From an uncultured Trueperaceae bacterium (GTDB lineage: Bacteria > Deinococcota > Deinococci > Deinococcales > Trueperaceae), in the NCBI GenBank assembly GCA_963799485.1, contig CAWCXJ010000006.1:416001-480000 (forward strand): DNA of 64,000 nt, given 5' to 3'. The notes below the pieces were generated by a model. That model worked only from the letters and a program-made list of their open reading frames with translations, was not told the origin of the DNA and searched no databases. The number at the start of each line of letters is the position of its first letter. Position 1 is the first letter of the stretch. The position numbers and the translations under genes were made by a program. Of the stretch, positions 1,787 through 25,401 are shown piece by piece.

Positions 1787-1883
1787 CTTCCACCCGTCCC
1801 CCACCTGAAGTTGCGTACTATTTGGTCTTTGGAGTTCCCCGACCCCGCGACCCACGCCGTTCTCGCTAGGGTAGAGCTTAACA

Positions 1884-3793: not shown

Positions 3794-5299
3794 CTACTGG
3801 TTTTGCGTCATGCGCCAGATTGTAGCTGTTCCCGGCTCTGCTTTGAGCCCGGTTTGCGTTACGCTAATGACGCCGAAATCCACGACAAAGAGCGAACCGT
3901 CCGGAGCCCACTCGAGCTGCATAGGCCGCTCCAGCCCACCACCGGCAGTGACCGAGGCAGGCTTGCCGGATTTATTGACCAGAAAATCCGAGACCTCCTG
4001 CGTATCCAGATTGACCCGAATGACCTCGAAACCGGGTAGCTTTTCGCGTAAGCTGCCGATGTTGGTACCAAAAGCTGCAACGAGTGCTTCGTTATTTCCC
4101 AAGTCGAAGTTACTCCCACCCAGCACGAGACCTTGCGCGGCGATATGCGGCTCGAGCTTGACCAGCGGCTGAATAGGCGCTTTGCGGTTGCCGAGCAGCG
4201 TTTGCCGGGTCTTTTCGCTCAGCACAAAGCCGCGCTCGGCACCTTTAAGCTCAAAGCGCGGGTCGGTGATCGGCAGGCCGCTGTAAAAGTCGGGCCAGCC
4301 GTACCAGGCACCCTCTTGCACTTCGTAAATCTGCTCCCAGTCGTTGTAGAGCGGGCGCGGCGGGATAGGGTTGCCCGAGTTTTGCGTGGCGATGAGCCGC
4401 CCGTCGGACGAAAAGCGGTAGCCGTAATCGCTTCGCAGCCCCCAAGCGTAGACTTCCAGGTTTGAGCCGTCCGGGTCGGCCCGCAAAAATGCGCCGTTGC
4501 AAGGGACTTCACCCTTGATGGTCTGGCCTGCCGTCGTTTCGGTACCCAAAGTAACGTAAACACCGGTCAGTTCCGTGTCGCCGACGCTCGGCGTCGAAGG
4601 GTCTTCGACCGGCACGGCGAAGTTCTTGCCGGTCAAGGTTACGTCTTCACAGGGCACCTCTTTGGCACCCGGTTTATTGAGCGCATTGATGACCTCGAGC
4701 CACTCCTGGTCGATAGGGCCGGCGTTACCCTGCGTAGAGAGAAAAAAGTACATTTTGCCGTCGGGCCCGAAGATGACCTTGTCGTTCGGAAAAAAGCCCC
4801 AAGACGGCATCCCGTTGACGATCGTTTTGAACGCACCTGTTTCGGGGTCGAGCGTCGAAACGCGGGTACGGTGTGCTACATATAAAAGCCCGTCATCGGG
4901 GTTAAAGGTCACGCCGGTCACGGGCGGAATCAGACCTTCGGGCATGTCGTTAGATGAGGCGTTCGCGCGGATATCCTTAAACGACACGTTTTTGTCGTAA
5001 ACGACCTTGTTGCTGCCGTCCGGCATGATCTGCAAGATACGCGCGGGTGGAGCCTCGTCGGGTGTCAAGCCGTAGGAGTGATATCCGGTTTCGGCTACAT
5101 AAACCTCTCCGTTCGCCCCAAAGGTGATATCGCTGGCGAAGTTGAGCCCCGACGCTGCGACCGTAAGGGTATAACCTTGCGGAACCTGCACGTCCGCCGG
5201 GTCTTTTTGAATAGGTTCTTGCGCGAACACAGCAGCTGCAAGGAGTGTTGCGCCCATCAACCAAGTTTGCCGCACGGTACTATACCAGTTTCGTTTCAT
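3794..5299 (-). CDS. Exported glucose/sorbosone dehydrogenase-family beta-propeller
   Basis: Signal peptide ending AVFA-Q; FGPDGKMY, AWGLR, YGWPD, GGLERP...PDGSLFVVDFG motifs. Confidence 0.8.
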   Translation of the reverse strand: MKRNWYSTVRQTWLMGATLLAAAVFAQEPIQKDPADVQVPQGYTLTVAASGLNFASDITFGANGEVYVAETGYHSYGLTPDEAPPARILQIMPDGSNKVVYDKNVSFKDIRANASSNDMPEGLIPPVTGVTFNPDDGLLYVAHRTRVSTLDPETGAFKTIVNGMPSWGFFPNDKVIFGPDGKMYFFLSTQGNAGPIDQEWLEVINALNKPGAKEVPCEDVTLTGKNFAVPVEDPSTPSVGDTELTGVYVTLGTETTAGQTIKGEVPCNGAFLRADPDGSNLEVYAWGLRSDYGYRFSSDGRLIATQNSGNPIPPRPLYNDWEQIYEVQEGAWYGWPDFYSGLPITDPRFELKGAERGFVLSEKTRQTLLGNRKAPIQPLVKLEPHIAAQGLVLGGSNFDLGNNEALVAAFGTNIGSLREKLPGFEVIRVNLDTQEVSDFLVNKSGKPASVTAGGGLERPMQLEWAPDGSLFVVDFGVISVTQTGLKAEPGTATIWRMTQNQ

Positions 5300-5377
5300 A
5301 CTTCCCCCTCGTTGGTTGTGGTTTTTGCAGTTCATGTTTAGTGAGCGGCTTTCTAAACGCTGCTCACGGCCTGTAAG

Positions 5378-5731
5378 CTACCGGGACGGGGCCGTGCCAC
5401 TGGCTGCGGCGCTCCGCCAGCCCAGAATAATCACGAGCAGTCCGATCAGCACGTCGTTCCAAAGTGCTGAACTAACTCCGGCGTAACCTAGTACGAACGG
5501 TGCAACGACGAGCCAAGCGCCAAGTACGACGTTCGTCCAACTCATACCGGCTTGGCGAAAGGCACCCCCAACCCGAATCGCGGCGAAAGTAGCGACCGCC
5601 AAGCCCACAATCACGTCGTTCCACAGTGCCGCCGTAACGCCCGCGTAGAGCAGCAAGAACGGCGCGACAAGGAGCCAAAGTTCCAAAAAGATGTTGGTGC
5701 CACTGTCCCAAAGAATCCGCTGCCGGTTCAT
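5378..5731 (-). CDS. SPW-repeat-like small membrane protein
   Basis: Two repeats WLxxAPFxLxY...ALWNDVxxG. Confidence 0.8.
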   Translation of the reverse strand: MNRQRILWDSGTNIFLELWLLVAPFLLLYAGVTAALWNDVIVGLAVATFAAIRVGGAFRQAGMSWTNVVLGAWLVVAPFVLGYAGVSSALWNDVLIGLLVIILGWRSAAASGTAPSR

Positions 5732-5785
5732 CTGTTCCCCCTATCCCCTGAACGTATCCGGCAATTACCTACTGTTGTCGCTTAC

Positions 5786-5926
5786 CTACTGTCGTTGCTG
5801 CCGTGATGCCTGCCGGGCGACGGGTACGCGGGCCAAGCTGTAGCTAGTCGGCAGGTCGGTAGAATCTGCCCGGCGACGTGACCACACCTCACGTAGCTGC
5901 GCAAGCTGCTGAAAAAACCTTTTCAT
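5786..5926 (-). CDS. Possible small protein (46 aa, MKRFFQQLAQLREVWS...)
   Basis: GGGAG RBS then ATG; co-oriented with neighbours; below the ORF-track cutoff. Confidence 0.35.
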   Translation of the reverse strand: MKRFFQQLAQLREVWSRRRADSTDLPTSYSLARVPVARQASRQQRQ

Positions 5927-6112
5927 AAGTTTCTCCCATAAACTCGAGGATTGACCGCTTTCTTTCCGCTGGCCTTATGGCCCAAGCCACCAGTGTGCGA
6001 CCGGTTGTTTTACCGGTAACTCTGCAGCGTGCAACTCCTTACATCATGGCTACCCCCATCGGCCCACTCCGCCATCCCCACTACATCGTCGTCACTTCGT
6101 TTTTAGGTCGGC

Positions 6113-7378
6113 CTAATCGGTCGCCGGTGGGGCCGTTGCCGCCGCTTGAACCCCTGACCCGGTACGCCGCAAACCCTGCACCTCGAGTAGTCCTGCATAC
6201 TCACGCATGGCGTTGTCGGGAACGTTTTCGGCTGATCCCAAAATCCAGGCGAAGTTGAAGACCTGCTGACTCGGATAGGTATAGGTAGGCTTGAGAACGT
6301 CGCCGACGTAGGTGCGCACTACTGCCGGCAACGAACCGTCATCGTTTGTCAGCATGAGTGGGGCGTGCTTACCCATGTGCGAAAGCACGAAACCGGGAAC
6401 TACCTCACGCCAGTCGCTAGGGTTTGCCAGGAGGGTGTTGTGACCGGGTTCGGCGATACCCCAGCCCGCGCCACGTTCGCGTTGACCAAACCACCAACCC
6501 AGCATCCGGCCCGAATCCTTATAGCCCGCCCAGCGAACGGCCATCTCTTGCGGCGTTGTACCGGGGATACGCTGTACGTGACCGTAACGGGCGAGTTCAG
6601 CCATGATCTCCGGCCCGACCACCGACGGCGGCGCGAACACGTAGATATAGGGATAGTTCGGGGCGCGCCGTTCGAGCATTCGTTTTGTGGCCTCGGGTAC
6701 ACCGTTTTCGGTGACGTACGCGAAAGCGTCGCCCGCGTGGGCGTTCCAGCTGGCGGCAGGGAGACTGTACTGAGGCGCTGCTAATGCGCCGATAAAGACG
6801 TTTTCGCGGTGATCGGACTCCATCACTGCAAGAAACTCGTCCAGGACTTCGGTAAAAGCTACCGGATCGGGCGCGTAGATGCGGCGGGTGCTAAGGCCCA
6901 GGTCTGTCTCAATCTCGGTGGCGAGCGTAGCTGCGATGTCGCCGACCAAATAGACCTGCACATTGTTGTCCATCATCACGCCCTCGGGGTCGAGGCGCTC
7001 GAGTTCGTCGCGCGTCGCCTGGGGCAGCGTGGTGCCGCCGCCGCTTACGAAGAGCATCGGCGCGTTGACCGGCATGTGCTGGAGCCGGGTGGTGGCGATT
7101 GCGGTAGCCGGGTCGTCGTCGCGAACCAGCACGACCGCTCCGGGGCGATCTTGGTCTTGCGCAACTGCGTAGATAGCTTGCGAGTAGGCGGTCGCGGTCT
7201 CGAGGTAGTCCGCGCCCGAAAGACGGGCCGTCGTACCGGTCAGTGTCAACATTTCAGCGTTTTGTGTGGCGCTGGCGCTCAGCGGTTCGCCTTGAGGCTC
7301 CCAGGTCGAAACAATCCAGAAAAGCCCGCCAAGCAGTACCACCAGCCCCGCCAGAAAGGTATAAAGCGGTCGGATCAT
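6113..7378 (-). CDS. Membrane-anchored protein, cell-wall-binding-repeat-2-like
   Basis: N-terminal TM; RLSGADYLETA, APMLF, GWGIAEPGH, KHAPLML motifs. Confidence 0.65.
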   Translation of the reverse strand: MIRPLYTFLAGLVVLLGGLFWIVSTWEPQGEPLSASATQNAEMLTLTGTTARLSGADYLETATAYSQAIYAVAQDQDRPGAVVLVRDDDPATAIATTRLQHMPVNAPMLFVSGGGTTLPQATRDELERLDPEGVMMDNNVQVYLVGDIAATLATEIETDLGLSTRRIYAPDPVAFTEVLDEFLAVMESDHRENVFIGALAAPQYSLPAASWNAHAGDAFAYVTENGVPEATKRMLERRAPNYPYIYVFAPPSVVGPEIMAELARYGHVQRIPGTTPQEMAVRWAGYKDSGRMLGWWFGQRERGAGWGIAEPGHNTLLANPSDWREVVPGFVLSHMGKHAPLMLTNDDGSLPAVVRTYVGDVLKPTYTYPSQQVFNFAWILGSAENVPDNAMREYAGLLEVQGLRRTGSGVQAAATAPPATD

Positions 7379-9511
7379 CTACATACTCCCGTTCTTCCAG
7401 CCGCGCCGGGCCATCACGTAGTTTGGAATCAGCGCGGTAAAAAAGCCCATCGCCGCGCCCCACCAGAGCGGTGAGACCCAGAGCCAGATATCTTCTTCGC
7501 TCATCAGACCCTGCCAGTTCATCCACCACCACACCAGCGTCCACATACCGACCGAAGATGCGATCATCGAAATAGCAACCGGCCAGAAACCCTTCTTGAC
7601 CCCCTGCCAGTAGCTCACACCGTGCATTTCGCTCATCATCGGCCCCATGAAAACGAAAGCCGAGATTAAAATCGCCGGTATTACCATGATGAACCACATA
7701 AGCGCCGCCATCGGTGCAGCCAGCCAGAAAAGCGGGGTGAACTCGAGGGCCCGAAAAAGCGGCAAACCGTTGAGTTCAAAAAGGTACATCGACGCGATCA
7801 TCAGCGCCATCCCGATACCCATGCCCATAATCGTGGCTGAAACTGCCCGTGCCCAGGTAGGACGGACGAAGCTGGGCATAGGCCCGTCTTTGTTGACCGA
7901 CCGATTCTGGTAGGCCAAGAAGAAGGCAACGATACCTAGCGGGCCCAGTACCAGCATCGACAGCGGCCAGTAGAGGCGCGGGTAAAAACCCGATTCGGGT
8001 ATCCGCACGGGCATAGCGAAAAGCGCCCAGATCGCCCCGGCAAGCCCGATAAAAACCCAGCTCCAGCCGAGGATCGCCAACCCGCTGGCCCCCTCTACCT
8101 GTTGCCGGTACGGATGCGTTTCCAGAGCTAGATCGGGGCGCGCTTGGGCGTTATAAGAAACGCTTTCGGGGCCGCCGATCACACGTATATTCATAAACGG
8201 CCCGTCGGAGGGCTGGTTGAAAAAATCCGGCCCGAGTCGCCAGACGTACTGATCGGTCAGTTCGTCGAGATCGGCTTGCGGCGTATACAGCAGTGGCCCG
8301 TAATTGCCGAGGTAAGCCAGCGGCAGCCCCGCTGCCGCAAAGCCGGAATCCGCCGGATTTGTGAGGGTAAAGTAGTAGTAGCCGTCTTTCTCCAGGTTTT
8401 CGTTCATCCCCCAGCCGAAATCGCCCCAGCGTCCTCTCGCCCAGAGCAGTGCGTGGCGGTAGAGGCCGTCGGCGGCGACGCGCTCGACGTTGCCGAAGGC
8501 GCGTAGCGGCGCTAGTGCACCGTTACCTATCAGCCGCGAGGGGGCGGCTACCAAGATGCGCTTGTTTCGCACACCGTTTAACGCGCCGACAGCTTCTGCA
8601 AGCGTCAGGACGGGCGCACGAAAGTGCGCCGCAGCGTAGGCGGCGGGGAGTGCGTAGGCAGGTTCCGTGTCGGCGACGACCACAATAACCGGACTCTCCC
8701 GGACAAGCGCGGCTTGTGCTGCTGCAAGGTCTGGCGACGCTCCCTCGGCCCCGTAAACGAGCGTCAGTCCCTGCGCGGCGGCGAGCGGCGCGAGTTGTGC
8801 CGCCGCCAGCGGGTCAGCGGGTACGTTCGCCGTATTGCCGCCCACCATCTCGGCCACTGCGACCCCGGCTGCCACCGGCGTGTCGGCAGGTACGCGCTGC
8901 ACGTTCTTGAGGGTGTAACCGAGGCGCGCCCCCTGATCGGAACCGTTACCGTAATCTGCCGACAAAAACCAGATGTAACCCAGCGCCGTCAGCAGCACGC
9001 CGGTGGTGAGTACGCTAATAAGCCAGGCGAGAACGCGGTTTAAGCTCAGCCGCTGCTTGGGCGACGGTGTTTTTGTAGCATCTTCACCGTGAGAACGTTC
9101 AACCAAGTTGCCGCCGTAACGCCGCGCCAGACTGCTTACGCTGTCGTCCGTGTCAGCTACCGTAACGTGGTAGCCGGACGTGTGCGAGGGTTTAACGGGC
9201 TCGAGGGCCACGAGACCACCCAGCAGTGCGCCGAGGCTCCCGCCGAATATCGACAAAAGTGCCGTCACCGCGCCCAGTGGCGCAGCAAAAAGCGGCTCGA
9301 GCCGCGGCAGCCCTACCATTCCTGCCTCGGCAAACGCACCTAAAAGGCCGAATAACGTCCCGCCGACAAGTGCGCTGAGCGCAGCCGTGCGAAACGCCTG
9401 CCGAGTTACCGGCTTTGTGGCGCCGCCAAGTTTGACCTGATGACCGGCAGTGCGCACCTCAACCGAAAAGTTGTAGGCGGCCTCTGCCGATGGAAATTCA
9501 ACTGTACTCAT
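7379..9511 (-). CDS. Multidomain membrane protein: Gly-zipper N-terminus, CWB2-like middle, Met-rich DUF4396-like C-terminal TM bundle
   Basis: 710 aa; WPLSMLVLGPLG and final GFFTALIPNYVMARRGWK resemble DUF4396 proteins; middle domain shares motifs with 6113..7378. Confidence 0.6.
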   Translation of the reverse strand: MSTVEFPSAEAAYNFSVEVRTAGHQVKLGGATKPVTRQAFRTAALSALVGGTLFGLLGAFAEAGMVGLPRLEPLFAAPLGAVTALLSIFGGSLGALLGGLVALEPVKPSHTSGYHVTVADTDDSVSSLARRYGGNLVERSHGEDATKTPSPKQRLSLNRVLAWLISVLTTGVLLTALGYIWFLSADYGNGSDQGARLGYTLKNVQRVPADTPVAAGVAVAEMVGGNTANVPADPLAAAQLAPLAAAQGLTLVYGAEGASPDLAAAQAALVRESPVIVVVADTEPAYALPAAYAAAHFRAPVLTLAEAVGALNGVRNKRILVAAPSRLIGNGALAPLRAFGNVERVAADGLYRHALLWARGRWGDFGWGMNENLEKDGYYYFTLTNPADSGFAAAGLPLAYLGNYGPLLYTPQADLDELTDQYVWRLGPDFFNQPSDGPFMNIRVIGGPESVSYNAQARPDLALETHPYRQQVEGASGLAILGWSWVFIGLAGAIWALFAMPVRIPESGFYPRLYWPLSMLVLGPLGIVAFFLAYQNRSVNKDGPMPSFVRPTWARAVSATIMGMGIGMALMIASMYLFELNGLPLFRALEFTPLFWLAAPMAALMWFIMVIPAILISAFVFMGPMMSEMHGVSYWQGVKKGFWPVAISMIASSVGMWTLVWWWMNWQGLMSEEDIWLWVSPLWWGAAMGFFTALIPNYVMARRGWKNGSM

Positions 9512-11770: not shown

Positions 11771-11835
11771 TGGTTTTACTTGATGGTTTTGCCCGGTGGT
11801 TTTGCCCAGTGTTTTTACTCGATGTTTTTACTTGG
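11771..11835. repeat. 13-bp tandem repeat x5
   Basis: TGGTTTTACTTGA TGGTTTTGCCCGG TGGTTTTGCCCAG TGTTTTTACTCGA TGTTTTTACTTGG. Confidence 0.85.
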
Positions 11836-13150
11836 TGGTCACCAGCCGGTAGACTTTTCCGGTGTTACCCTTCGGCCCTTCCGTCTCTTTGGTCAGCACA
11901 TACGGCTCATCGCTGGCGTTTTGACCAAAAGCGAGCAGACGACCCGGCAACAGTCCGCCTTCTTCACCGCCGACTACCTGAAGCTGCCTGAAAGACCACA
12001 TACCCGTTTCGGAGGGCGTCGCACTCAGCAGCACGCCGTGGTGATTTTCTGCGGACCCGGCGTGGTTGCCGAAAAGATATTGACCTTCGTAGATAAGTGT
12101 TGCCACGGTAGATACAGCCGCCGATAATGGCGATGCCTACGTCGTGGCTTTGCTCGAGCACCGGGTCGATCAAGGGTGTACCGTCCGGTGTGCTGTCCGG
12201 ACAATTTTCCGGCGGTTGTTCAGGCGTTTGTGTCGAAAAGCAGTGCGCTCCCTCTTTAACGTGCCAGCTGTAGTTGCCCCCTTTTTGGACGATGTTGACC
12301 TCTTCAAAAAGCTCTTGCCGCAAGTCGGCGGTGTAGAGTGTTCCGTCTTGGTCGAATGAGAGAGCCCATGGGTTGCGAAGGCCGTAAGCCCACACTTCTT
12401 CAGCGCCGTTTTGTCCGACAAAGGGATTGGCCTGGGGAATAGCTGTAAGCTTTGCCCCCTTGCCGGGCATCGACGTCAATACGCAAGAGCGTACCTAACA
12501 GGTTCGTAGCGAGGCCTTGAGCGTTTCCGCCGTCGCTGACCTCGTACCAGTTGTCGATGTGGCCCACGTCCTCGTCGTTTGCGCCGCCGTCGCCTAAAGA
12601 AATATAGCGATAATCGTCCGGTCCAAAAGCAATCTGCCCGCCGCTGTGGTTGAGTTGCAGCTCATCGACGCGGAGCAAGACCCGCTCTGAATCTGGGTCT
12701 GCGCGGTTGGGTTCGTCTGAGACGCTAAACTCCGAGACGTGGCTCGTACTGCTCCAATCCGAGAGTGCGCTTTTCACGTAGGGGTGCGCTGTAATAGACG
12801 TAGAAACGCCCGTTTTGCGCGTAATCGGGGTGAAACGCCAGTCCCAGAAAGCCGCGTTCGTCGTAACTTTCGTTTGGGTCGACCAGCGCATCACGAAGGT
12901 CGAGAAAAGGCTGTGTGATGAGTTGACCGTTCGCGTCTATAATCTTGATAACGCCGATTTGGTCGACCACGAGAAGCCGCCCGCTGTCGTCCGGAGACGG
13001 TACAAGCACCGTCGGCGCGGTAAAGCCCTCGGCGACTAGCTCGAGCCCTATTTGCGGTGTCTGGGCGAAGCCGGTGTTTGCCGTTATAAGAATAGCTGCG
13101 AGCACGCCGGTTCCAAGTAAACGAGACGGAAGAAAAGGGGGCTTGACAGC
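11828..13150 (-). pseudogene. Frameshifted PQQ-dependent sugar dehydrogenase family gene
   Basis: Motifs ERGFLGLAFHP, NHSGGQIAFGPD, AYGLRNPW and AFGQ..DEPYVL are spread over four ORFs (12725..13327, 12400..12894, 11964..12479, 11828..12106). Confidence 0.85.
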
Positions 13151-13190
13151 GGGTTGTCCTTTCAGTTTTGCGCGCACAAAGTTGCAAAAC

Positions 13191-13222
13191 CGCCGGGCTT
13201 TACGGCTGGGTAAAGCCCGGCG
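13191..13222. repeat. Perfect 13-bp inverted repeat (hairpin downstream of the csp gene)
   Basis: CGCCGGGCTTTAC-GGCTGG-GTAAAGCCCGGCG. Confidence 0.7.
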
Positions 13223-13403
13223 ACATACAAATATGCTTGATTCAGATGTAGTTGGTTCAGGTGTGGCTAGTTCAAATCGGCAAGCCGGCGAATAGACCCT
13301 CGGGTGTGTGAGAACTCGATCCCTCACCAGACAACCGGGATACCGACGCTGCTGTCGGCACCTCGGTTGTAATCGCTTTAGACAACGGTTTTAGACAGTA
13401 GCT

Positions 13404-13962: not shown

Positions 13963-15390
13963 TTACCCGCCGAAGACCCGCCCCAGATACTGTGTCACTG
14001 AAAGGGCAGTGCTCGGCAGTACCCCGAACAAGAGTGTGCCGAAGACGCTGATACCGAGCGCCAAAAGATACCCCGGCCAATTGGGAACACGACTCTCGGT
14101 CTCCGGAGCCCGCAGGTACATTTCCACGATGGGCAGCAGATAGTAGTACAAGGCCACGGCAAAGTTCACAATGGCAATGACGGCAAGCCAGGTCAGCCCG
14201 CCTGAAAGCGTAACGTCTAACAGCAAAACCTTTCCTGCAAACCCGGCGAGTGGCGGGATACCGGCGAGCGACAACAGCGACAGGGTAAGGCCCACAGCTG
14301 CCAGGGGTGAACGTTGGCCCAAACCCCGTAGACCCCGCATCTCGTCACTGCCGGTGAGGCGCTCCAACTGCGCTGCAACGACAAATGCGCCCAGGTTCAT
14401 CAGCAGATACGCGAGCAGGTAGTAGCCAGCGGCGCTCAGAGCTGAAGGTACACGCTCAGCAACAGCGACGACCATTAGTACGTAGCCTGCTTGAGCGATG
14501 CTCGAGTAGGCCAACAGCCGTTTAAGCCGCGTTTGCCGCAACGCGATAAAGTTACCGAGGGTCATCGTCAGCGCAGCCAAGACAGCCACGGCAAGGGGCC
14601 AAGCGGCGAGCCCGCCCGGTAGCGCCACGAGGAGAAAGCGCAGCAGCGCTGCAAACCCCGCCAGCTTAGGGACGACCGTCAAAAACCCGGTGACGGGCGC
14701 AGACGCCCCGGTATACACGTCGGGCGCCCAGAAATGAAACGGCACCGCGGTAATTTCAAAGGCGTAACCGATTAGCACCAGACCGAAAGCGAGCGCCACC
14801 CAGACCCTATCCGCGCCTGCCAAACCTGCGCCAATCGCGGGCAGCGACAAGTTCCCGGTGAGGCCGTAAAGAAACGAAAGCCCGTAAGCCATGACCGCCA
14901 GGGCCACCGCGCCGTAGATAAAGTATTTAAGCGCTGCCTCGTTCGCCTCCCTGTTGGTTCGGACCAGCGCCACCAAGATGTACGAGGCCATGCTGAGCAG
15001 CTGCAAAAAGAGCACGATAAAGCCCAGATCGAGGCTGCTCGCCGCCAGCACTCCGCCGAGCGTCGAAAAGAGCAGCGCGACCGCCGCGTGCCCCTCTTTG
15101 CCCGTCCCGCGAAAATGTGACCCGATAGTAAAAATTGACAAGAGTGCGCCGAGCAGAATCAGGAGCTTAAAGACCGTACCGAAACCGTCTACCGCGTAGA
15201 CACCGCAAAAGACGGCCTGGTCTTGCCAAGAAAGCATCCGCACGCTAAAAACAGCTGCGGCGATAAGGCCGCAAACCGCCAAAAATACGACGACGTTTTG
15301 ACCCCGCCCTTTGCTCAGACCGGCAACCGGAACCAGCGCAAGCGCAAATCCTGCAAGAATCATCTCGGGCACAATCGCCCAGAGGTCCAT
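13963..15390 (-). CDS. nuoN: NuoN-like antiporter subunit
   Basis: EAALKYF, PFHFWAPDVY, KRLLAYSS, GIPPLAGFAGK. Confidence 0.92.
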   Translation of the reverse strand: MDLWAIVPEMILAGFALALVPVAGLSKGRGQNVVVFLAVCGLIAAAVFSVRMLSWQDQAVFCGVYAVDGFGTVFKLLILLGALLSIFTIGSHFRGTGKEGHAAVALLFSTLGGVLAASSLDLGFIVLFLQLLSMASYILVALVRTNREANEAALKYFIYGAVALAVMAYGLSFLYGLTGNLSLPAIGAGLAGADRVWVALAFGLVLIGYAFEITAVPFHFWAPDVYTGASAPVTGFLTVVPKLAGFAALLRFLLVALPGGLAAWPLAVAVLAALTMTLGNFIALRQTRLKRLLAYSSIAQAGYVLMVVAVAERVPSALSAAGYYLLAYLLMNLGAFVVAAQLERLTGSDEMRGLRGLGQRSPLAAVGLTLSLLSLAGIPPLAGFAGKVLLLDVTLSGGLTWLAVIAIVNFAVALYYYLLPIVEMYLRAPETESRVPNWPGYLLALGISVFGTLLFGVLPSTALSVTQYLGRVFGG

Positions 15391-15403
15391 GCACTCCACC
15401 GCG

Positions 15404-16885
15404 CTAACCGCCGCTTCCGATTCGGCTCAGCATGATGATCGTACCGTCCAACACCCGCAAGAACGGCCCCGGCAAAAGCCCAATCGCAAGTGACAGTGCA
15501 GCCAGCGGGATGACGGCTGTGGCCTCACGCGGATTCAAGTCGTGCACCTCGGGCATGTTGTCGGGCGCTGTACCCATCAAGAGAGCGGTGAGAATCTTTA
15601 GGTAAAGACCCGTCGAGATAATCAGTCCCAAAACGGCGACCAGTGCCAGCCAGATATTTACCGACAATGTTGCGCCGATCACCTGAAACTCGGCGACAAA
15701 GCCTGACAGCCCCGGTAAGCCCAACGACCCGAACGCCAGCAAACCCAGAAGACCGCTGTAAGCCGGTATTTTGCCGAGCAAACCGCCGAACCGTGCCAGC
15801 TCCCGTGTCCCTGCCTGATGCTGCAAAATCCCGGCCAAAAAGAACATCCCACCCGTCAAGAGGCCGTGGCTGATGGTTTGCAAGACCGCGCCGCTGAGGG
15901 CGAGCTGCCGCACGCCGGGGTCGCTTGAAAGTCCCCATACCGCCACGCCCAACAGCACAAACCCCATGTGGTTGACCGAGGTGTAGGCGATAAGGCGTTT
16001 GAGGTCGCTCTGCGCGAGCGCCGCCAGCGCCCCGTAAACGAGCGACACGAGTGCCAGCAGCATCAGTAACCAGGCGTACTGCCGCACCGTATCGGGCATG
16101 GTCGGGAGCATAATGGCTAAAAAGCCGTACGCCCCCATCTTGAGCTGAATCCCGGCGAGCATCACGCTGCCTTCGGTCGGCGCTTCGACGTGGGCGTCGG
16201 GCAGCCAGTTGTGGAGCGGCACGGTCGGCAGTTTGACGCCGAAACCGAGCAGTAAGCCCAAAAAGACCCAGAACCCGGTTGCTGAACCCGCGAAAGGCTG
16301 CGCCGCGCTGATGTCGGCGAGCGAAAAACTGCGCCCGCTCGCCAGGTAGAGCGCCAAAAAACTGAGCAGCATCGCCAAACTGCCGACGCGAGTATAGAGA
16401 AAGAACTTCAAGGCTGCGTAACGGCGGTTTTCGCCGCCCCAAATCCCGACGATAAAATACATCGGGACGAGGCCGATTTCGAAAAATAGGTAAAAAAGCA
16501 GCAGGTCGCGAGCCGCAAACAGTCCCAAGAGCCCGGTGCCCATCAGCAAAAACAAAAACGCATGTTCTTTAGCCCGGTCGCGCTCGGGCAGCACGTAAAC
16601 CATCGTCAGGGTCATCAGTAGCGCAGTTAAGACAATCAGCGGGAGTGAAAGTCCGGTGACGGCGACGTCATAGCTCGCACCCAAACTTGGAATCCACGGC
16701 GTAGTGGCGCGCCACTGAAGCTGCGGGCCGGCGGGATTGTAACCTATCCACAAAACGAGCGTCAAAAGCAGTGTCAGCAGCGACCCGGCGAGAGCCGTCC
16801 AGCGCATGGCGCGCGCTTTCTCTCGGGGTAGTGCGAGGACGACGAGCCCCGTTAGAAGCGGTAAAAAGATGGTGATACTCAGCAT
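15404..16885 (-). CDS. nuoM: NuoM-like antiporter subunit
   Basis: FFE, VKLPTVPLHNWLPDAHVEAPT, LKMGAYG, DLKRLIAY, GFVAEF. Confidence 0.95.
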   Translation of the reverse strand: MLSITIFLPLLTGLVVLALPREKARAMRWTALAGSLLTLLLTLVLWIGYNPAGPQLQWRATTPWIPSLGASYDVAVTGLSLPLIVLTALLMTLTMVYVLPERDRAKEHAFLFLLMGTGLLGLFAARDLLLFYLFFEIGLVPMYFIVGIWGGENRRYAALKFFLYTRVGSLAMLLSFLALYLASGRSFSLADISAAQPFAGSATGFWVFLGLLLGFGVKLPTVPLHNWLPDAHVEAPTEGSVMLAGIQLKMGAYGFLAIMLPTMPDTVRQYAWLLMLLALVSLVYGALAALAQSDLKRLIAYTSVNHMGFVLLGVAVWGLSSDPGVRQLALSGAVLQTISHGLLTGGMFFLAGILQHQAGTRELARFGGLLGKIPAYSGLLGLLAFGSLGLPGLSGFVAEFQVIGATLSVNIWLALVAVLGLIISTGLYLKILTALLMGTAPDNMPEVHDLNPREATAVIPLAALSLAIGLLPGPFLRVLDGTIIMLSRIGSGG

Positions 16886-16919
16886 GATGCCCCCACTGAA
16901 CTTGCTTTACGTTGATTTG

Positions 16920-18773
16920 TTACCACCACAGCAACCCTCCGACCAGGGCAGCCGCAACCCAAACGAACAGAACAAGCGTATAAAGGTAAAGCTTGCCGCT
17001 CTCGGTTACGCGCAGCCGTTCGCCGGAACGGCCCAGCAGGCGGGCGAACGCGTTGCCACCACCTGAAAACCCTGCTTGTTCGGCCCGCTCGGTTCCGGCA
17101 GCGGTGCTTGTAGCAGCGGCGGCGAGGCCGCGAGCCCCGCTGTCAAAGCTGCGCTCGAGCCTGTTCACGCCTGCTGCAACTGCTTGCACTGCGGTGACCG
17201 GCGCAGCGGTCACGGTGTCGAGGCCACGCCCTAGGCCTGTCGAAAACGCTCCAAAGGCAGGTACAGGGCCGTGCTGCAGCGTTCGCCAGCTCCCGAACAC
17301 AAGCCCTGAAACGCTCGCCGCTACTGCCCAGAAGCTCCAGACGGCACGAACCTCCAGCGCTTCGGCAAAGTTCAACGAGGACTCGAGGGGCCCCACTAAC
17401 AACCAGCCTGCGACAAGTGCAAGCACCGCCAAAAGAACCATCGGCAAGGCCATCCACACGCCCGGTCTTTTACCGGTCGGTTTCGGCGCATCCGGCCAGG
17501 AGAGAAAGGCCGCCACACCCGCCCGGCTGATATATACCCCCGCGAGAAAAATCACCAGCAGTAAAAATGCACCGGCAAACGGACTTACAAACACAGCCCT
17601 TGCCAGAATCGCCTCTTCGCTCCAAAAGGCGGAAAAAGGTGGAAGCCCTGCCAGTGTCAAGCCCGCCGCTGCAAACACCCCAGCCGTTAGGGGAAGTTGT
17701 CGCCAGAGTCCGCCCATCTTCCGCAGGTCGTAACCCCCGGCGACGTGCCCGACCGCGCCCGCCGTAAGAAATAGCGCCGCCTTGAAGAGCGCCTGCATAC
17801 TCAGGTGAAACGCAGCCGCAAAAGCGCCGCCCAGTCCCAGCGCGAAAAACATCTCACCGAGTTGTGAAACCGTAGACCACGCCAAAACCTGTTTCAGATC
17901 GGTCTGCACCGTAGCGACGAGGGCGGCAAAAAGTGCCGTTAGTGCGCCCAGCCAGAACACCAGCGCAAGTACACCTGGGGCCGCCTCGTAGAGCGGAAAG
18001 AGCCGCAGGGGCAGATAAACACCTGCAGCTACCATCGTCGCGGAATGAATCAGCGCCGAGACGGGCGTCGGGCCGGCCATCGCGTCGGGTAGCCAAGCTG
18101 TTAGTGGGAGCTGGGCGCTTTTGCCGAGCGCCCCGAGGAGTAAGAGGAAAGCAGCGAGTGTCGCAGTGCCCAAAGGCAATTCGCCTATAGCGCCCAAAGT
18201 TGTCTGAATGTCGGTTGTCCCGACCGCTAAGAGCAGCAGCAGCCACCCGAGTAGCAGACCAAGGTCGCCTAAACGGGTCATCAGAAAGGCTTTGCGCGCC
18301 GCTTCTTTCGCGTCGATTTGGCTGTACCAGAACCCGATCAGCAAATACGATGCGAGCCCGACGCCTTCCCAGGCGGCAAACAAAAGTACCATAGAGTTGC
18401 TTAAGACAAGCGTCAGCATTGCGCCGATAAAAAACGACAGGGTGCTGTAAAAACGCGGTTTGCCCTGTTCATCAGCCATGTAACCGACTGCGTATATCCC
18501 GACGAGTAGCCCGACACCCGCCACCAACACTGCCAGCAGGTATGAAAGTGGGTCGAGGCTGAGACCCACCGTCAGGGTATAGGGGCCGATCACCAACCAC
18601 TGCGCCGTCACGCTGGGTTGCGACCCAAAGAGGATAAGCAAAAGCGTCAGCGAGACGCCGGTTGCACCCGCACTCAGCCAACCGCCGCCACTGGGTAACC
18701 GCTTTCTAAGAACAAAGATAACAAGCGCCATCAAAAGCGGTACGAGCGGTGTAGCGATAACGAGCGCCGTCAC
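16920..18773 (-). CDS. nuoL: NuoL-like antiporter subunit
   Basis: WEGVG, KSAQLP..WLPDAMAGPTPVSALIH, transverse helix and final TM. Confidence 0.95.
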   Translation of the reverse strand: MTALVIATPLVPLLMALVIFVLRKRLPSGGGWLSAGATGVSLTLLLILFGSQPSVTAQWLVIGPYTLTVGLSLDPLSYLLAVLVAGVGLLVGIYAVGYMADEQGKPRFYSTLSFFIGAMLTLVLSNSMVLLFAAWEGVGLASYLLIGFWYSQIDAKEAARKAFLMTRLGDLGLLLGWLLLLLAVGTTDIQTTLGAIGELPLGTATLAAFLLLLGALGKSAQLPLTAWLPDAMAGPTPVSALIHSATMVAAGVYLPLRLFPLYEAAPGVLALVFWLGALTALFAALVATVQTDLKQVLAWSTVSQLGEMFFALGLGGAFAAAFHLSMQALFKAALFLTAGAVGHVAGGYDLRKMGGLWRQLPLTAGVFAAAGLTLAGLPPFSAFWSEEAILARAVFVSPFAGAFLLLVIFLAGVYISRAGVAAFLSWPDAPKPTGKRPGVWMALPMVLLAVLALVAGWLLVGPLESSLNFAEALEVRAVWSFWAVAASVSGLVFGSWRTLQHGPVPAFGAFSTGLGRGLDTVTAAPVTAVQAVAAGVNRLERSFDSGARGLAAAATSTAAGTERAEQAGFSGGGNAFARLLGRSGERLRVTESGKLYLYTLVLFVWVAAALVGGLLWW

Positions 18774-19081
18774 CCGCGTAGCTCCGCGAAGTCGTCAACC
18801 TGCGCGGTCTGCCGGGTGCGGTAGAGCATCATCATGATGGCCAGCCCGATGGCCATTTCAACGGCTCCCAGGGTCACGATGATAATCAGAAAAATCTGCC
18901 CGGAATAGTCTACGGGTGCAACAAAACGCCAGAAAGCCACGATATTAAGCCCGACCGCGTTTAAGAGCACCTCGACGCCCATCAGGATCATGACTGCCGA
19001 ACGTTGCGCGATAACGGTGTAGATACCGATACCGAAGAGGATAGCAGCGACAATCAAAAAAGCTGTCAAGGGTAAAGTCAT
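18770..19081 (-). CDS. nuoK: NuoK-like subunit
   Basis: Three TMs; MGVEVLLN and AVEMAIGLA with both conserved Glu. Confidence 0.93.
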   Translation of the reverse strand: MTLPLTAFLIVAAILFGIGIYTVIAQRSAVMILMGVEVLLNAVGLNIVAFWRFVAPVDYSGQIFLIIIVTLGAVEMAIGLAIMMMLYRTRQTAQVDDFAELRG

Positions 19082-19962
19082 GCGTTGTCCTCCAACGGTT
19101 TCAAGGTGTCATCCTCGAGTTCAGACGGCATTTCGTCCTGCCCTACACGTACCTCGCGTCCTTTGTCCGACGGATGACGGTCGGGCCGGGCGATATACAC
19201 CGCGCCGAAAATACCCACTAAAATCAGGAAGCCCGCCCCCTCGAACGCCATCATGTACTTGCTCATCAGCAAGTCCCCGACCTGCTTCGCCGAATCGGGG
19301 TTGGGCAGCGCGTCCATAACGGGCCACGCCGGTCGCAGCAAAAGCAGCAACACGAGCAGCGCGCCCGTCGCTAAGCCGAGCCACACTGCGTAGGGGCGCA
19401 CCGGTGTGACCATTGACATATCCATGTCGCCCATATCCATGTCGCCGTGATTCATGCCCTCGTGGTTCATCTCGCCGTCATCACTATGATCTTCGTCCTC
19501 TTGAGGACCCTCATCGCCCGCACCTTGCTCACCGGATGACATGTCGTGATGCGCGTGCTGATGGTTTTGCTGCTCATCGTTAGCTTCGGCATTTTGACCT
19601 AGGTTCTCGACACGGGACGCTTTCACGTCATTTTCTTCTTTGGGTAGCAGACCTCGACTAAAAAAGTTTTCAACCGGGGCCATGTCCATCCCCGCCATCA
19701 TGCTGCCGCCGGGGTCGTGCATCAAGAGCACCATGAAAAGCACCATCACCAGCATCCCGCCGATATACATCATGATTTGCAGGAGCCCCAAGAGGTCGGC
19801 GGAGAGCAGGATAAAGAGCCCCGACACCCCGATAAACGACGCCATCAGGAAGATGCCGCTGCGAAACATGCTCATCGTTGTCGCCATGCCGAGCGCACCC
19901 AAAATGGCAATCAGCGACAGCAAGCCGAAGGCAAATATTTGGGCTACAGCTCCCAAAATCAT
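19078..19962 (-). CDS. nuoJ: NuoJ-like subunit with His/Met/acidic insertion
   Basis: QIMMYIGGM (TM3), VGDLLMSKYMMAFE; start by ATGA overlap with the nuoH stop. Confidence 0.88.
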   Translation of the reverse strand: MILGAVAQIFAFGLLSLIAILGALGMATTMSMFRSGIFLMASFIGVSGLFILLSADLLGLLQIMMYIGGMLVMVLFMVLLMHDPGGSMMAGMDMAPVENFFSRGLLPKEENDVKASRVENLGQNAEANDEQQNHQHAHHDMSSGEQGAGDEGPQEDEDHSDDGEMNHEGMNHGDMDMGDMDMSMVTPVRPYAVWLGLATGALLVLLLLLRPAWPVMDALPNPDSAKQVGDLLMSKYMMAFEGAGFLILVGIFGAVYIARPDRHPSDKGREVRVGQDEMPSELEDDTLKPLEDNA

Positions 19963-20858
19963 GCCGGCCCTACGCCTAAAAGGATAAGCCCACCGACCAG
20001 CAGCACATTGACCATGCCGACGGGAATCAGCACGCGCCACGAGAGCTGAAGCATCTGGGCGGTGCTGAGCGGTTTGACGAGTCGCCCCAGGCCGAGCATC
20101 AGCGTCATTACCCCGAAGGTTTTGACAAGCATCCAGACCGGCGCAGGCAGCCACGGCCCCTGCCAGCCGCCCAGATAAAGTACGGCTCCCATCGCTGAGA
20201 CGGCGAAAAACAGTCCGGCAAGTACAAGACGCCAGACAAGCGCCTGCCAGCCGCCGACTACGCCCAGCACACCGCCACCGATGAACCGGGAAAACGGTTC
20301 CATAAAGGGTGCGCGGTACGCCTGCATCAGTCCGGTAACAAGGTAAAGCGCAAAGCCGACGGGCTGGAGCACTACAAACCATAAACTGCTCTGGCTTTCG
20401 ACGATGCTTACAATAGATAAAGACTCCGCCATCATGATCGCGCCGACATAGGCAAGCCCCAGCGGGACGATGTAGGCGACGAGCTGCGCGGTGATGCGGT
20501 AGTACGCGTCTACCGCGTCCGGTATGTTCGCGCCCCAACCCGTAAGCGCCACGCCCAGGACGACATAATCGACCACGACGATAAAGTAAAACGCGCCGAT
20601 ACCGATATCTTCTGCGACGAGGCCGGGGCCGAAAGGAATGACGACGAGGGCGAAGGACACGCCTAAGAGCGCCGAGACTGCACCTGCTGGGTAGAGCCAG
20701 CGGTCGGCGCTAAGGAGTTTGGCATCTTCCCGGATATGCGGCGCAGTCGCCGGCCCTAACTCGGCGCGGCGGCGCATGAACCGCTCGAGCCCCATCGTCC
20801 CCAATCCGCCGACAACGAGCGTTGCAAGAACGAAAAGCGCACCCGTAACTATTCCCAC
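19959..20858 (-). CDS. nuoH: Degenerate NuoH-like subunit
   Basis: ER, ADRWLY, IPFG, AQLVAY, RAPF, YLGGW, VKT, QML..SW; GTG start inferred. Confidence 0.85.
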   Translation of the reverse strand: MGIVTGALFVLATLVVGGLGTMGLERFMRRRAELGPATAPHIREDAKLLSADRWLYPAGAVSALLGVSFALVVIPFGPGLVAEDIGIGAFYFIVVVDYVVLGVALTGWGANIPDAVDAYYRITAQLVAYIVPLGLAYVGAIMMAESLSIVSIVESQSSLWFVVLQPVGFALYLVTGLMQAYRAPFMEPFSRFIGGGVLGVVGGWQALVWRLVLAGLFFAVSAMGAVLYLGGWQGPWLPAPVWMLVKTFGVMTLMLGLGRLVKPLSTAQMLQLSWRVLIPVGMVNVLLVGGLILLGVGPA

Positions 20859-21166
20859 TCGAGCCCCCCCATCGCCCAGGCGTAGGTAATTCCGGTTGAA
20901 AGAATCGCGATAAAAACGAGCATGTCTAAAAAGGCCTCGAGCCCTCTTTCGGCGAATACCACCGCCCACGGATACATATAGATCATCTCCATGTCGAACG
21001 AGAGGAATATCAGCGCGTAGACGACGTAACCAAAGCGAAACTGTGCCCACGCTGCGGGCGCTTTTAAGAGCCTCGCTTGCGGTCGCCAAAAGGCCGCGCC
21101 GAGCAGCGCAAGCCCGGCGGCGATGAGAGCCAGCAGACCGACGACGGCGTAACTGCCGAGAATCAC
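20849..21166 (-). CDS. nuoA: NuoA-like subunit lacking the YECG loop
   Basis: ALIFLSFDMEMIYMYPWA, YAW..GGLEW. Confidence 0.9.
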   Translation of the reverse strand: MILGSYAVVGLLALIAAGLALLGAAFWRPQARLLKAPAAWAQFRFGYVVYALIFLSFDMEMIYMYPWAVVFAERGLEAFLDMLVFIAILSTGITYAWAMGGLEWE

Positions 21167-21850: not shown

Positions 21851-21935
21851 TCTTAGAATTGTACAAACCAACCTCTAGTACTTCACCCCGCCCAGGACAA
21901 CGCGGGCCCTCATCTGTCTTAGAACTGTACAAACC
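21851..21935. repeat. 19-bp direct repeat x2, 66 bp apart
   Basis: TCTTAGAATTGTACAAACC (21851) and TCTTAGAACTGTACAAACC (21917). Confidence 0.8.
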
Positions 21936-22015: not shown

Positions 22016-22603
22016 TTATGAGTGCGACACAGACAGCGGTTGTGCGGAGCTGCGTACCTGCCTTATCCGACCAAGCAAGACGGTGATTCCTAGCAGGGCA
22101 AGGCTGGTGAGGAGTAAAAATGCGGCGTAGCCGAGCGGCTGGACGTATTCCGGTACGTCACGTGCGAAGCCGTCTTCAAAACGCGCCGATACAGTTTTCG
22201 ATAAAGCTTCCCCACGGCCTGATGGGGGCGACACATTGACCGTCAGCCAGGTCACCAGACCGGCTTGTCCTGGACCGTAGCGCAGATAAACGTTCCAGTC
22301 GCCCGGTGCCGGAAACGTATAGCGGAGCCGGTAGACCCCGGGCGCGCTGGGCTGGAGTACCCGGCGCTTGTAACGTCCTGCCTGACTGAGCGACAAGTAG
22401 AGTTCGCCGCGGTTGGCGCTGCCGGGCTCGAGGCGCACCTCAACCAAGCTTGGCTGCTCGGCCCCACTGCTGGTGATGGAAACGGTAGCAACCGGGGCGT
22501 TCGGGTCAACGGTCCGTTCACGGTTCGGCTCATGAGCCAAGCCCGGCGGCAGGGCCGTGAAACACAAAACCATAAACGTCCGCACTATAAACGTCCGCAT
22601 CAC
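22016..22603 (-). CDS. Exported protein with predicted mature N-terminal His, beta-rich domain and C-terminal TM
   Basis: Signal ...PPGLA-HEP; PGVYRLRYTFPAPGDWNV; C-terminal hydrophobic helix. Confidence 0.8.
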   Translation of the reverse strand: MMRTFIVRTFMVLCFTALPPGLAHEPNRERTVDPNAPVATVSITSSGAEQPSLVEVRLEPGSANRGELYLSLSQAGRYKRRVLQPSAPGVYRLRYTFPAPGDWNVYLRYGPGQAGLVTWLTVNVSPPSGRGEALSKTVSARFEDGFARDVPEYVQPLGYAAFLLLTSLALLGITVLLGRIRQVRSSAQPLSVSHS

Positions 22604-23691
22604 AGCTCGGCCCGCTTGGTTACCAGCGCCTTGCGAGAACGTGAAGCCGCCCTAGTCTCATCGGCGGTTCCGCTTGTGGTCTCGCCACGAAGTGCAGCTG
22701 CCACCCACGCACCTAACCAACCCATTAGCGCAGCTAAGCTGAGGCCCGGTAGCGCAGCTTGCAAGAGTACATCCGGGTACCAAACAATCCCCTCGCCAAA
22801 AGCGATAAGTAGCCAGTTGGCGGCGAGCATCACCGCACCGGCGACCAGCCCGAGCAACCAGGCCGGCAGGTTCCGGCGACTTAGTAAATCGACGGCTAGG
22901 CCCGAAAAAATCACAAGCGAAATAAGGGGCCGGGTAGCCCCTGCCCAACCTAGGCCGGCTGTCGTTATCAGCCAAGCTGCTAGACCCAGCCGGAACACCG
23001 TGTAAAGAATTGTAGTTACAGTAGCGGCCCACCGCCCCAGCGCCAACCGGCTTACCAGCAAGAAGACAAACGGAGGTAAGCCTACGAGCAGCACGGGGTG
23101 CCAAAAACTCGGAAACTGCGGGGTATTGAAGTCAAATTCTGCCAGTAGGAGTACCAGCCAGCCGAGTAGTGCAGCTGCGAAAAAAAGGGTCACGCCACTC
23201 AGTAAGTGCCTGCGGCTTTCACTTAAACGGCGTTCGAGCCAGGCGCTTACCAGGCCACCGAAGCTCGCAAGCGTAAGGCCTAAGATTCCAATGAGATGCA
23301 TCGGTGCCCAGAGCGTAACGTCGATGCCGAACAGCTCGTGCCAGAGTTCATCTAGTGGTGCAAACAGCAGCTCGAGCGCGGCACCGACAGCGACGATGAG
23401 GATACCGGGGTGAAGCCTGAGCTTACCCAGGCGCAGATGAAAGGGGGTGTTGCGGCGGTCGCGCAGAAGGCCGTAAAAGCTCGTTAAGAGTACGACGGCA
23501 ATACTCGAGTAAAGAAAATTGTGTGGCAAGGTAAAAAAACTATCACGCCCGATATCGATATGCCACGCTATATCCCAGTAAATACCGAGCAGTCCGGCAA
23601 GTGCGCCCAAGCTTAACACCGGCAAAACACCAAGCGCCCAAAGGTCCGGGCGGTCTTTTCCTGCTAACGTCGCCACTTCAGGGGTGTCCAC
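22600..23691 (-). CDS. Polytopic membrane protein with PmoC-like copper motifs and PmoA-like C-terminal half
   Basis: DIAWHIDIGRDSFFTLPH and DELWHELFGIDVTLWAPMH; AAGGAG RBS. The CDS is solid; the functional label is inferred. Confidence 0.7.
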   Translation of the reverse strand: MDTPEVATLAGKDRPDLWALGVLPVLSLGALAGLLGIYWDIAWHIDIGRDSFFTLPHNFLYSSIAVVLLTSFYGLLRDRRNTPFHLRLGKLRLHPGILIVAVGAALELLFAPLDELWHELFGIDVTLWAPMHLIGILGLTLASFGGLVSAWLERRLSESRRHLLSGVTLFFAAALLGWLVLLLAEFDFNTPQFPSFWHPVLLVGLPPFVFLLVSRLALGRWAATVTTILYTVFRLGLAAWLITTAGLGWAGATRPLISLVIFSGLAVDLLSRRNLPAWLLGLVAGAVMLAANWLLIAFGEGIVWYPDVLLQAALPGLSLAALMGWLGAWVAAALRGETTSGTADETRAASRSRKALVTKRAEL

Positions 23692-23808: not shown

Positions 23809-24129
23809 TCAACCTTTGTACTTGAGCGCTTCCATTAGTTCGTCTACGATATGCTCGGTATCGCCGCGCAAGATAGCGGTCGAAACGTGGTCTCTGACAT
23901 GTGCGCGCAGCACCTTGTCGTTGACTTTAGTCAATGCCCCTTGTACCGCGCTCAGCTGTTTCATCACATCGACGCAGTAAACGCTCTCGTCTCCCAGCAT
24001 CCGCAAGATACCCTCGAGATGCCCCTTGGCACTTTTAAGCCGCAAAACGGCATCTTTGCGTGTTTCAGGGTCGAGATGAAGGCATTCCGAGGCGACAAGC
24101 GCCTCGGTTGCTTCAGCGTTGGGGGTCAT
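23809..24129 (-). CDS. csoR: Copper-sensing repressor CsoR
   Basis: RLKSAKGHLEGI, YCVDV, HVRDHV (Cys-His-His type as in Thermus). Confidence 0.93.
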   Translation of the reverse strand: MTPNAEATEALVASECLHLDPETRKDAVLRLKSAKGHLEGILRMLGDESVYCVDVMKQLSAVQGALTKVNDKVLRAHVRDHVSTAILRGDTEHIVDELMEALKYKG

Positions 24130-24329
24130 CCCGTTTTGAGCGTAGCCTGATAACCTTCGTCTTCGACGGCGGCGATCAGCGCTTCAGGTGAAGCCGTACC
24201 TTCAACTTCAGCCGTGCCGTCGGAAAGGTCGACGTGCGCTTTTTGGGTACCCGCGACAGACTCGAGCGCCGAGGTGACCGCTTGCTGACAATGTCCACAG
24301 GTCATACCGGAAATATCTAGCTTTGTCAT
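24126..24329 (-). CDS. copZ: Copper chaperone
   Basis: GMTCGHC HMA motif, 67 aa; GGAGG RBS. Confidence 0.95.
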   Translation of the reverse strand: MTKLDISGMTCGHCQQAVTSALESVAGTQKAHVDLSDGTAEVEGTASPEALIAAVEDEGYQATLKTG

Positions 24330-24346: not shown

Positions 24347-24367
24347 CCCCCCCCACCTGGGGCGGGT
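24347..24367. promoter_or_regulatory. CsoR operator (copZ promoter)
   Basis: CCCCCCCCACCTGGGGCGGG C/G-tract pseudo-palindrome. Confidence 0.75.
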
Positions 24368-24469
24368 AGAATAAGAGTATAATCTTCGGGGGCGGCTTAG
24401 GCAAGTCCCGCAGACGACAATAGCAGACGACAGCAGCAGATGACAGCAATAGTTTATAAAGGGGACACC

Positions 24470-25334: not shown

Positions 25335-25355
25335 CCCACCCCACCCGGGGGTGGT
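25335..25355. promoter_or_regulatory. CsoR operator (copA promoter)
   Basis: CCCACCCCACCCGGGGGTGG, matching the copZ site; TATGAT follows. Confidence 0.75.
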
Positions 25356-25401
25356 GGTGTATGATAAGTAAGCTCTCAAGTTTTATGAGGAGGTAAACCC
25401 G

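Follow-up and report, generated by a model that had tools for sequence, protein, structure and literature searches.

It is a matter of debate whether the particulate methane and ammonia monooxygenases (pMMO and AMO) carry out their chemistry at the CuB site or at CuC/CuD, recombinant enzyme is difficult to obtain in active form, and the CuB ligands are dispensable in verrucomicrobial pMMO, according to the passages available from PMC13058606. Archaeal AmoB does without a transmembrane (TM) helix and the C-terminal soluble part (accessible part of PMC10030591). In the available portions of the respective papers, CcoH, a relative of FixH, is described as staying bound via its TM helix to a copper oxidase (the cbb3 oxidase; PMC7876108), YtkA domains as serving copper-site assembly (PMC13344008), and YcnI as binding Cu(II) by an N-terminal His and exchanging it with a partner, with a layout of His1, extracellular beta domain, and TM anchor (PMC12362106). 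A full-text literature search, which covered main texts and few of the subscription journals, returned among its passages no paper on the gene pair described here or on a family of PmoC-PmoA fusions; the term passages found in PMC12353581 and PMC13734099 had no bearing on the pair.

The window, a 64,000-nt stretch of DNA from an uncultured Trueperaceae bacterium, encodes on its minus strand a 363-aa membrane protein (22600..23691), in which a PmoC-like core is fused to a PmoA-like domain, followed by a 195-aa protein (22016..22603) with a predicted signal peptide, Ig-like domain, and TM helix. The genes and gene parts of the window whose coordinates are given below lie on the minus strand. The plus strand contains no open frame over 22016-22603, and a plus-strand reading was rejected. 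At the junction (...CTG-TGA-TG), the GTG start of the smaller gene shares 4 nt with the stop of the larger one, and its next codon, ATG, shares 1 nt. The original prediction had pointed to this coupling and to a C-A-B-like gene order; both are supported, the smaller gene sitting behind a PmoC-PmoA relative, in the "B position".

The AF2 model of the 363-aa protein (pLDDT 92.3) gave no Foldseek match at E<=0.001, with PmoA/AmoA chains listed at a Foldseek probability of 0.98-1.0. When the top 1000 Foldseek matches were realigned with VIA-align, A chains of pMMO/AMO took all of ranks 1-12 (Z 10.8-11.9) on the helical domain formed by residues 156-344 (22660..23226); AmoA 9pxf_D superposed on residues 161-336 with an rmsd of 2.8 over 164 residues. 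The N-terminal part, residues 1-162, aligned with PmoC 7yzy_C (Z 8.6, rmsd 4.6, 151 aligned). Such Z values are in reach of helical bundles by common arrangement, so that the sequence evidence matters for the PmoC-PmoA identity. A 94-sequence profile of the protein gave a 90.8% match (E 1.2e-6) to HmoC from Mycolicibacterium chubuense, and the ligand positions of the two coincide at every one of six residues, namely in a CuC-like set, D40/H44/H57 (23521..23574), and a CuD-like set, D114/H118/H132 (23296..23352), in which an Asp stands at the Asn of HmoC. Both sets are invariant in 94/94 sequences (alignment A3, from which the fusions described below and a 410-aa protein, P0089, were left out). 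The match of the family to HmoA was weak (1.3%, E 0.04).

Other searches with the large protein were less informative. Pfam returned no match for the 363-aa protein, which missed the AmoC/AMO gathering score; AmoC was reached at E<=1 by 8/94 members of the family, with a best E of 3.7e-4. A PDB sequence search returned nothing useful, and no relatives were found in a phage collection; close relatives carry the names Trueperaceae or Truepera. A wide VIA search with the model listed mostly four-helix bundles, and cytochrome b561 (Z 10.4) was discarded as a candidate because all four His lie on one membrane face, at helix ends of the model. The PmoA-like half (22660-23226) also resembles S-components of ECF transporters (5edl; Z 10.5, rmsd 4.8, 174 aligned), a likeness that could point to some relation of the PmoA fold to the S-components. 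Profile and model together mark the 363-aa protein as a distant relative of PmoC and PmoA joined in one chain.

The 195-aa protein, hereafter the partner, begins with basic residues and a short hydrophobic stretch that ends in G-L-A, directly before H24. Residues 1-23 (22535..22603) are predicted to be a cleavable signal peptide; their coding region contains a 15-nt tandem duplication at 22569-22598 (RTFIV-RTFMV). A cut before His24 (22532..22534) is likely, because in 17 of the 24 closest sequences a His stands in the same column right after a small-x-small (A/G) motif, and it would make His24 residue 1 of the mature protein. The AF2 model of the mature partner (pLDDT 90.7) has nine strands at mature residues 15-118 and one helix at 131-163, corresponding to an Ig-like beta-sandwich (residues about 38-144, 22172..22492) and a C-terminal TM helix (residues 155-181, 22061..22141); mature residues 1-3 are modeled with pLDDT <50 and probably form a flexible tail. 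The only other histidine, H194, lies beyond the TM helix, in agreement with the original prediction that the soluble domain has no further His. In the family alignment (A2, 58 rows, with repeat proteins, four short fragments, and three fusions left out), the soluble domain has no conserved His, Met, or Cys column. The interval that separates the partner gene from a rhodanese gene contains a 19-nt direct repeat, its copies 95% identical and 66 nt apart (21851-21869 and 21917-21935), possibly an operator.

We examined the co-occurrence of the two genes in 301 Deinococcota genomes. The large protein found some match in 37 genomes and a match with E<1e-100 in 17, while the partner found some match in 31 and one with E<1e-20 in 17; the 17 genomes with a close large subunit are the same 17 that have a strong partner match. 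In 17/17, the partner gene lies directly downstream of the large gene in the same direction (with the large gene of G235 divided between two contigs), which confirms the expected co-occurrence. These 17 genomes represent four families of the sample and, being kin, are not independent; an unpublished genome with a partial match (G252) was left out of every count. Among 12 more distant loci, one is fused, nine have an adjacent downstream gene for a protein with signal peptide, beta domain, and TM helix, and two were not resolved. At L013/L042 (G174), a stop codon interrupts the partner gene about 115 profile positions in, either a broken gene or an assembly error.

Five metagenome proteins (P0100, P0125, P0130, P0136, and P0165) carry both proteins in one chain, and close fusions keep the signal peptide as an internal hydrophobic segment. 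In the fusions P0165 and P0124, the internal signal-peptide-like segment ends in A-H, and these chains may be cut back into two. In more distant fusions, the C-terminal domain was matched by the partner profile at 95% in four proteins and at 91% in P0120. Plasmids provide further examples: M. chubuense has a fused form of 489 aa, and Chondrinema a His-rich partner of 538 aa; the M. chubuense plasmid (NC_018022.1, locus L063) holds canonical hmoCAB and the fused 489-aa family member about 165 kb apart. No conserved third gene was found beside the pair. The 195-aa protein is thus a dedicated partner of the 363-aa protein.

Co-folding of the two proteins gave a score of 0.89 in three runs, against 0.00 for the best of 3 controls, in line with the interface that the original prediction had anticipated. 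The mark was reached by 116/157 solved complexes and 2/215 mismatched pairs, counts that are only rough, as we supplied our own alignments. At least 78% of the contacts agree between the runs, and the partner has a pLDDT of at least 80. The predicted interface is large, with about 120 contacts and a TM core: the partner TM helix would pack on helices 95-106, 130-155, and 330-338 of the 363-aa protein, the contacts falling on its third and fourth helices and its last TM helix, and the beta domain of the partner would contact loops 120-131 (between H118 and H132), 189-195, 252-253, and 301-305. The best-conserved soluble residues of the partner, E67 (54/58), R108 (55/58), G110 (58/58), G112 (56/58), and R80 (45/58), all lie in this predicted interface, and the 21 soluble interface positions are better conserved than the 95 others (0.58 vs 0.45, permutation p 0.007), the same alignments having fed both the conservation test and the co-fold model. 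His1 is absent from the confident interface contacts. Two caveats apply to the score itself: two proteins that exist elsewhere as one fused chain are prone to pass, and a pass may stem from likeness to solved pMMO/AMO complexes.

What kind of protein, then, is the partner? Neither member of the pair belongs to a Pfam or NCBIfam family above the cut-off. In all three fold searches of the partner, chain 9g6b_C of FixH came first (E 8e-4 in Foldseek; Z 9.3, rmsd 3.8, 104 aligned), with YEATS and C2 domains within 1 Z unit and other sandwiches near; the beta-rich domain of the original prediction is modeled as an Ig-like sandwich whose best match has generic sandwiches close behind. Over the 58 members, Pfam YtkA was reached at E<=1 by 41 (best E 2.8e-4) and FixH by 21 (best E 3.2e-5), while the partner of the window stays under the cut-offs of both YtkA-like (PF13115; 21.1 bits vs a gathering score of 25.9) and FixH (PF05751; 13.7 vs 23). 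In the ESM Atlas, the pair has as neighbors clusters labeled "hypothetical protein", in one of which 10% of the members carry YtkA. The nearest matches of the partner, all weak, are Ig domains of the FixH/YtkA type.

The original prediction had offered membership in the PmoB/AmoB family as one option, and the brace residues do not favor it. In HmoB, which we fetched, the word matching PGDWNVY (partner residues 100-106, 22286..22306) is PGTWHVH, and the three brace His, His1 plus the two of this word, are kept in 74/74 PmoB/HmoB homologues; at the two would-be brace positions of the word, the partner has N104 and Y106, as had been read from the sequence, and its family has His in 3/58 and 0/58 members. 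PGDWNVY is followed by GPGQ, as the original prediction had read, and the PG-W word alone is weak evidence for PmoB, since filamin repeats, the only result of a PDB sequence search with the partner, align to the same stretch. Pfam Monooxygenase_B (PF04744) was reached by 0/58 members at E<=1, compared with the YtkA and FixH counts above. No PmoB/AmoB chain was among the matches listed in the three fold searches (down to Z 7.0 and 7.9), which does not thereby exclude the fold, and PmoD ranked at Z 7.4 with generic sandwiches around it. By contrast, the accessible part of PMC9038741 reports 4O65 as the best hit in a fold search with a divergent archaeal AmoB model. We found no canonical pmo/amo gene in the host genome; the 14 control genomes contained no positive control, but PF04744 did find HmoB.

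Against the profile of the PmoB N-domain, the partner profile scored 3.6-4.4% in hhalign. One run, a single-sequence comparison (E 0.31), placed PGDWNVY in register with PGTWHVH of HmoB, whereas the other, profile against profile (3.6%, E 0.012), aligned the D-G...D..Y segment and the TM helix after the last strand, so the two registers conflict. The domain is also about 25 residues shorter than that of HmoB, as the motif W is mature residue 80 while the brace His of HmoB are 106 and 108. Nevertheless, a second partner clade, presumably homologous and in the same gene position, itself scores only 6-12% against the partner family profile; the profile test is insensitive, which leaves room for a remote PmoB ancestry. 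The partner could be a very remote PmoB/AmoB of archaeal layout that lost two brace His, with His1 as a relic of CuB and the pair as a deep CuMMO branch whose three subunits were inherited together. The C-A-B order behind a clear PmoC-PmoA relative, the size and layout near those of archaeal AmoB (available part of PMC10030591), the dispensable CuB ligands of verrucomicrobial pMMO (PMC13058606, passages cited above), and the A-H start of the distant partners P0124, P0165, and L065 would all fit such a history. Set against the family-wide loss of the brace, the low profile scores with their conflicting registers, the missing Monooxygenase_B matches, and the shorter domain, we regard it as rather unlikely. 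On sequence grounds, the partner is not demonstrably a member of the PmoB/AmoB family.

The genes around the pair point to copper. Upstream lie a CsoR-family metal-sensing repressor (23809..24129; PF02583, E 2.3e-21) and a CopZ copper chaperone (24126..24329, with its ATG at 24329 and overlapping the csoR start; NF047957 over the cut-off), and copA is found further on, on the strand opposite to the pair. A C/G-tract element before copZ (24347..24376, no strand assigned; repeat family D3) has a 73% copy before copA (25335-25364); we take these elements to be probable CsoR operators. The pair is followed by a gene for a rhodanese, by nuo-like membrane genes, and by a gene of the DUF326 copper-storage-like kind. 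The nuo-like genes (complex I membrane arm, 13963-21166) also follow the partner in L089 and L090, and a glucose/sorbosone dehydrogenase-like gene (11828-13327) is in several pieces in different frames, with the Pfam match on the first piece. Three expression runs gave small shares, with reads on only about 230 nt of copZ and none on the pair, and a promoter and terminator scan stayed at chance level (3 vs 1.7, 6 vs 4.6).

Among the GTDB loci, the pair has dedicated copper genes beside it in only 3/17 (G000, G043, and G273), several loci ending at contig borders; among the metagenome loci, it has them in 3/8, all three from one assembly. In G202, haem-copper oxidase assembly genes are near the pair. 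Since copper genes occur at a minority of loci, copper defense is probably not the only role of the family. At one locus (L078, G273; 715-8133), the pair heads a same-strand run encoding an unknown exported protein, YtkA, a 529-aa membrane protein, DUF1775 (YcnI), and three CopC.

The copper island of the window, the weak YtkA matches, and a layout of His1, extracellular beta domain, and TM anchor like that of YcnI (accessible part of PMC12362106) would suit a transient membrane-tethered copper chaperone of the YcnI or CtaK/YtkA kind, which would dissociate again after supplying the large protein or other copper enzymes. However, DUF1775 (PF07987) was reached by 0/58 partner members at E<=1, and hhalign against a real DUF1775 protein gave 0.3%. 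In G273, a partner with no N-terminal His has separate YtkA, DUF1775, and three CopC genes in its run. The strict one-to-one pairing, the fusions, and the large predicted interface with its TM core and conserved residues speak against a free-standing chaperone of the YcnI type, which the original prediction had named as its second option and which we now consider very improbable.

The N-terminal His requires separate treatment, as it is not constant. In the +1 column, the 58 homologues have His 21 times, Gln 14 times, and a gap 8 times; in the partner itself, His follows G-L-A, as the original prediction had read, it is mature residue 1 by a cleavage site that is likely from the alignment, and His1 is a trait of the clade rather than of the whole family. 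His occupies mature positions 1-3 in 27/56 homologues (21 at +1, 5 at +2, and 1 at +3; two rows were dropped from this count), compared with 4/119 crudely predicted secreted proteins of this genome. His at +1 is above chance, as it occurs in 3/119 of the latter, the partner included, against 76/119 with Gln. This frequency of Gln right after the signal peptide (genome G000) resembles the pyroglutamate "Q-rule" of Bacteroidota. On a tree of 59 sequences (three N-truncated rows dropped, four fusion domains added), His1 needs 6 changes, compared with a shuffled mean of 18; being clustered in this way, the enrichment counts kin. His1 is found in 14/14 members of the clade of the window (support 0.92), where it is constant while the residues just after it vary, and in a few neighbors and three scattered cases. 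The remaining 29/56 homologues have no His at positions 1-3, and of the 17 GTDB orthologues three have His1 and two have His2, while the other 12 lack it at all three positions; the tail can therefore not be essential.

These counts bear on a further explanation, that the partner is a purely structural, metal-free stabilizer of the large subunit and that its N-terminal His is a peculiarity of the signal-peptide cleavage site in one lineage. It would account for the absence of any conserved His, Met, or Cys column in the soluble domain, for the lack of an N-terminal His in more than half of the homologues and at that place in the fusions P0100, P0130, and P0136, and for conservation confined to Gly, Arg, and Glu residues of the predicted interface. 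It explains less well why His exceeds the background and recurs at three positions in separate branches, why it is invariant in the clade of 14 and near the N-terminus of 8/8 second-clade partners, and why His1 forms lie in copper operons or behind copZ/csoR in G000, G043, and L088-L090 (not in G163). We consider this explanation unlikely. Cu(II) is bound by free amino termini in which one of the first three residues is His. A His that comes back at each of these places, on a tail modeled with low confidence, is more in keeping with an optional copper-catching tail than with a rigid brace.

We therefore favor, with about even confidence, the reading of the partner as a stable capping subunit with an optional N-terminal Cu tail and of the pair as a minimal CuMMO-like complex without CuB, a reading that falls between the two options of the original prediction. 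Pairing, fusion, the conserved ligands, and the missing brace are observed, the folds and the interface come from models, and cleavage, Cu binding, Cu hand-over, and catalysis are inferred. The remote-PmoB and structural-only explanations agree with it in making the partner a stable subunit. After export and cleavage, the partner would remain attached through its single TM helix on the helix bundle holding the metal sites, and its FixH/YtkA-like Ig domain would cap the outer loops around the CuC/CuD-like site. In the lineage of the window, the flexible His tail probably catches Cu(II) and hands it to this site. The partner would thereby take the place of PmoB in the gene order, and probably in the complex, without the CuB brace. 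If the complex is catalytic, its activity would depend on the six ligands that are invariant in the large subunit, and the pair is probably a minimal copper-dependent membrane redox enzyme. Located behind copZ-csoR, it is likely induced by copper together with them. A bolder version, in which the pair is a complete minimal copper membrane monooxygenase without CuB, made of a fused C-A chain and a remote B whose lone His is a remnant or precursor of the brace, is in our view distinctly unlikely; if true, it would offer a living model of the ancestor of methane/ammonia monooxygenase, spread through ordinary heterotrophs.

The pair is of interest as a natural two-gene system in which both C-site ligand sets are kept and CuB is absent. 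It should be easier to express, given culturable heterotroph hosts (Calidithermus chliarophilus DSM 9957) and natural single-chain fusions, and its natural His1, His2, His3, and His-less variants form a ready series on the N-terminal His in copper loading. A FixH/YtkA origin of the partner would mean that the C-A core took on a cap unrelated to it, whereas kinship with PmoB would make all three subunits older than methane oxidation. The locus adds the smallest, His-poor, and brace-less partner type, and evidence for an optional N-terminal His.

Comparison with the known systems places the pair as follows. The 363-aa protein shares with PmoC and PmoA of pMMO/AMO the six ligands at the CuC/CuD positions and, by its model, the PmoA/AmoA fold, but it is fused, has an Asp for the CuD Asn, and is missing the N-terminal PmoC helices, as is archaeal AmoC. 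Like PmoB/AmoB/HmoB (PF04744; archaeal AmoB domain 4O65), the partner comes third in a C-A-B order, has a predicted signal peptide followed by His, an extracytoplasmic beta-sandwich with a PG-W strand late in the domain, and a TM helix, and is predicted to bind the C and A parts; unlike them, it has neither the second nor the third brace His, keeps His1 in a minority of its homologues, gives no significant profile match, and binds one fused C-A chain. With the YcnI/DUF1775 mono-histidine-brace protein, whose Cu(II) site consists of His1, Glu, and Trp, it has in common an N-terminal His after a signal peptide, a beta domain, a C-terminal TM helix, and a copper operon, but no sequence match, and it differs in a His1 that is not family-wide and in strict pairing with one membrane protein. 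FixH/CcoH (PF05751) and YtkA/CtaK (PF13115) have, like the partner, a membrane-tethered Ig-like domain, and their client is a copper membrane enzyme; in contrast to CcoH, with its N-terminal TM helix, the partner is anchored C-terminally after a predicted cleaved signal, and its client is a PmoC-PmoA-like protein rather than a haem-copper oxidase.
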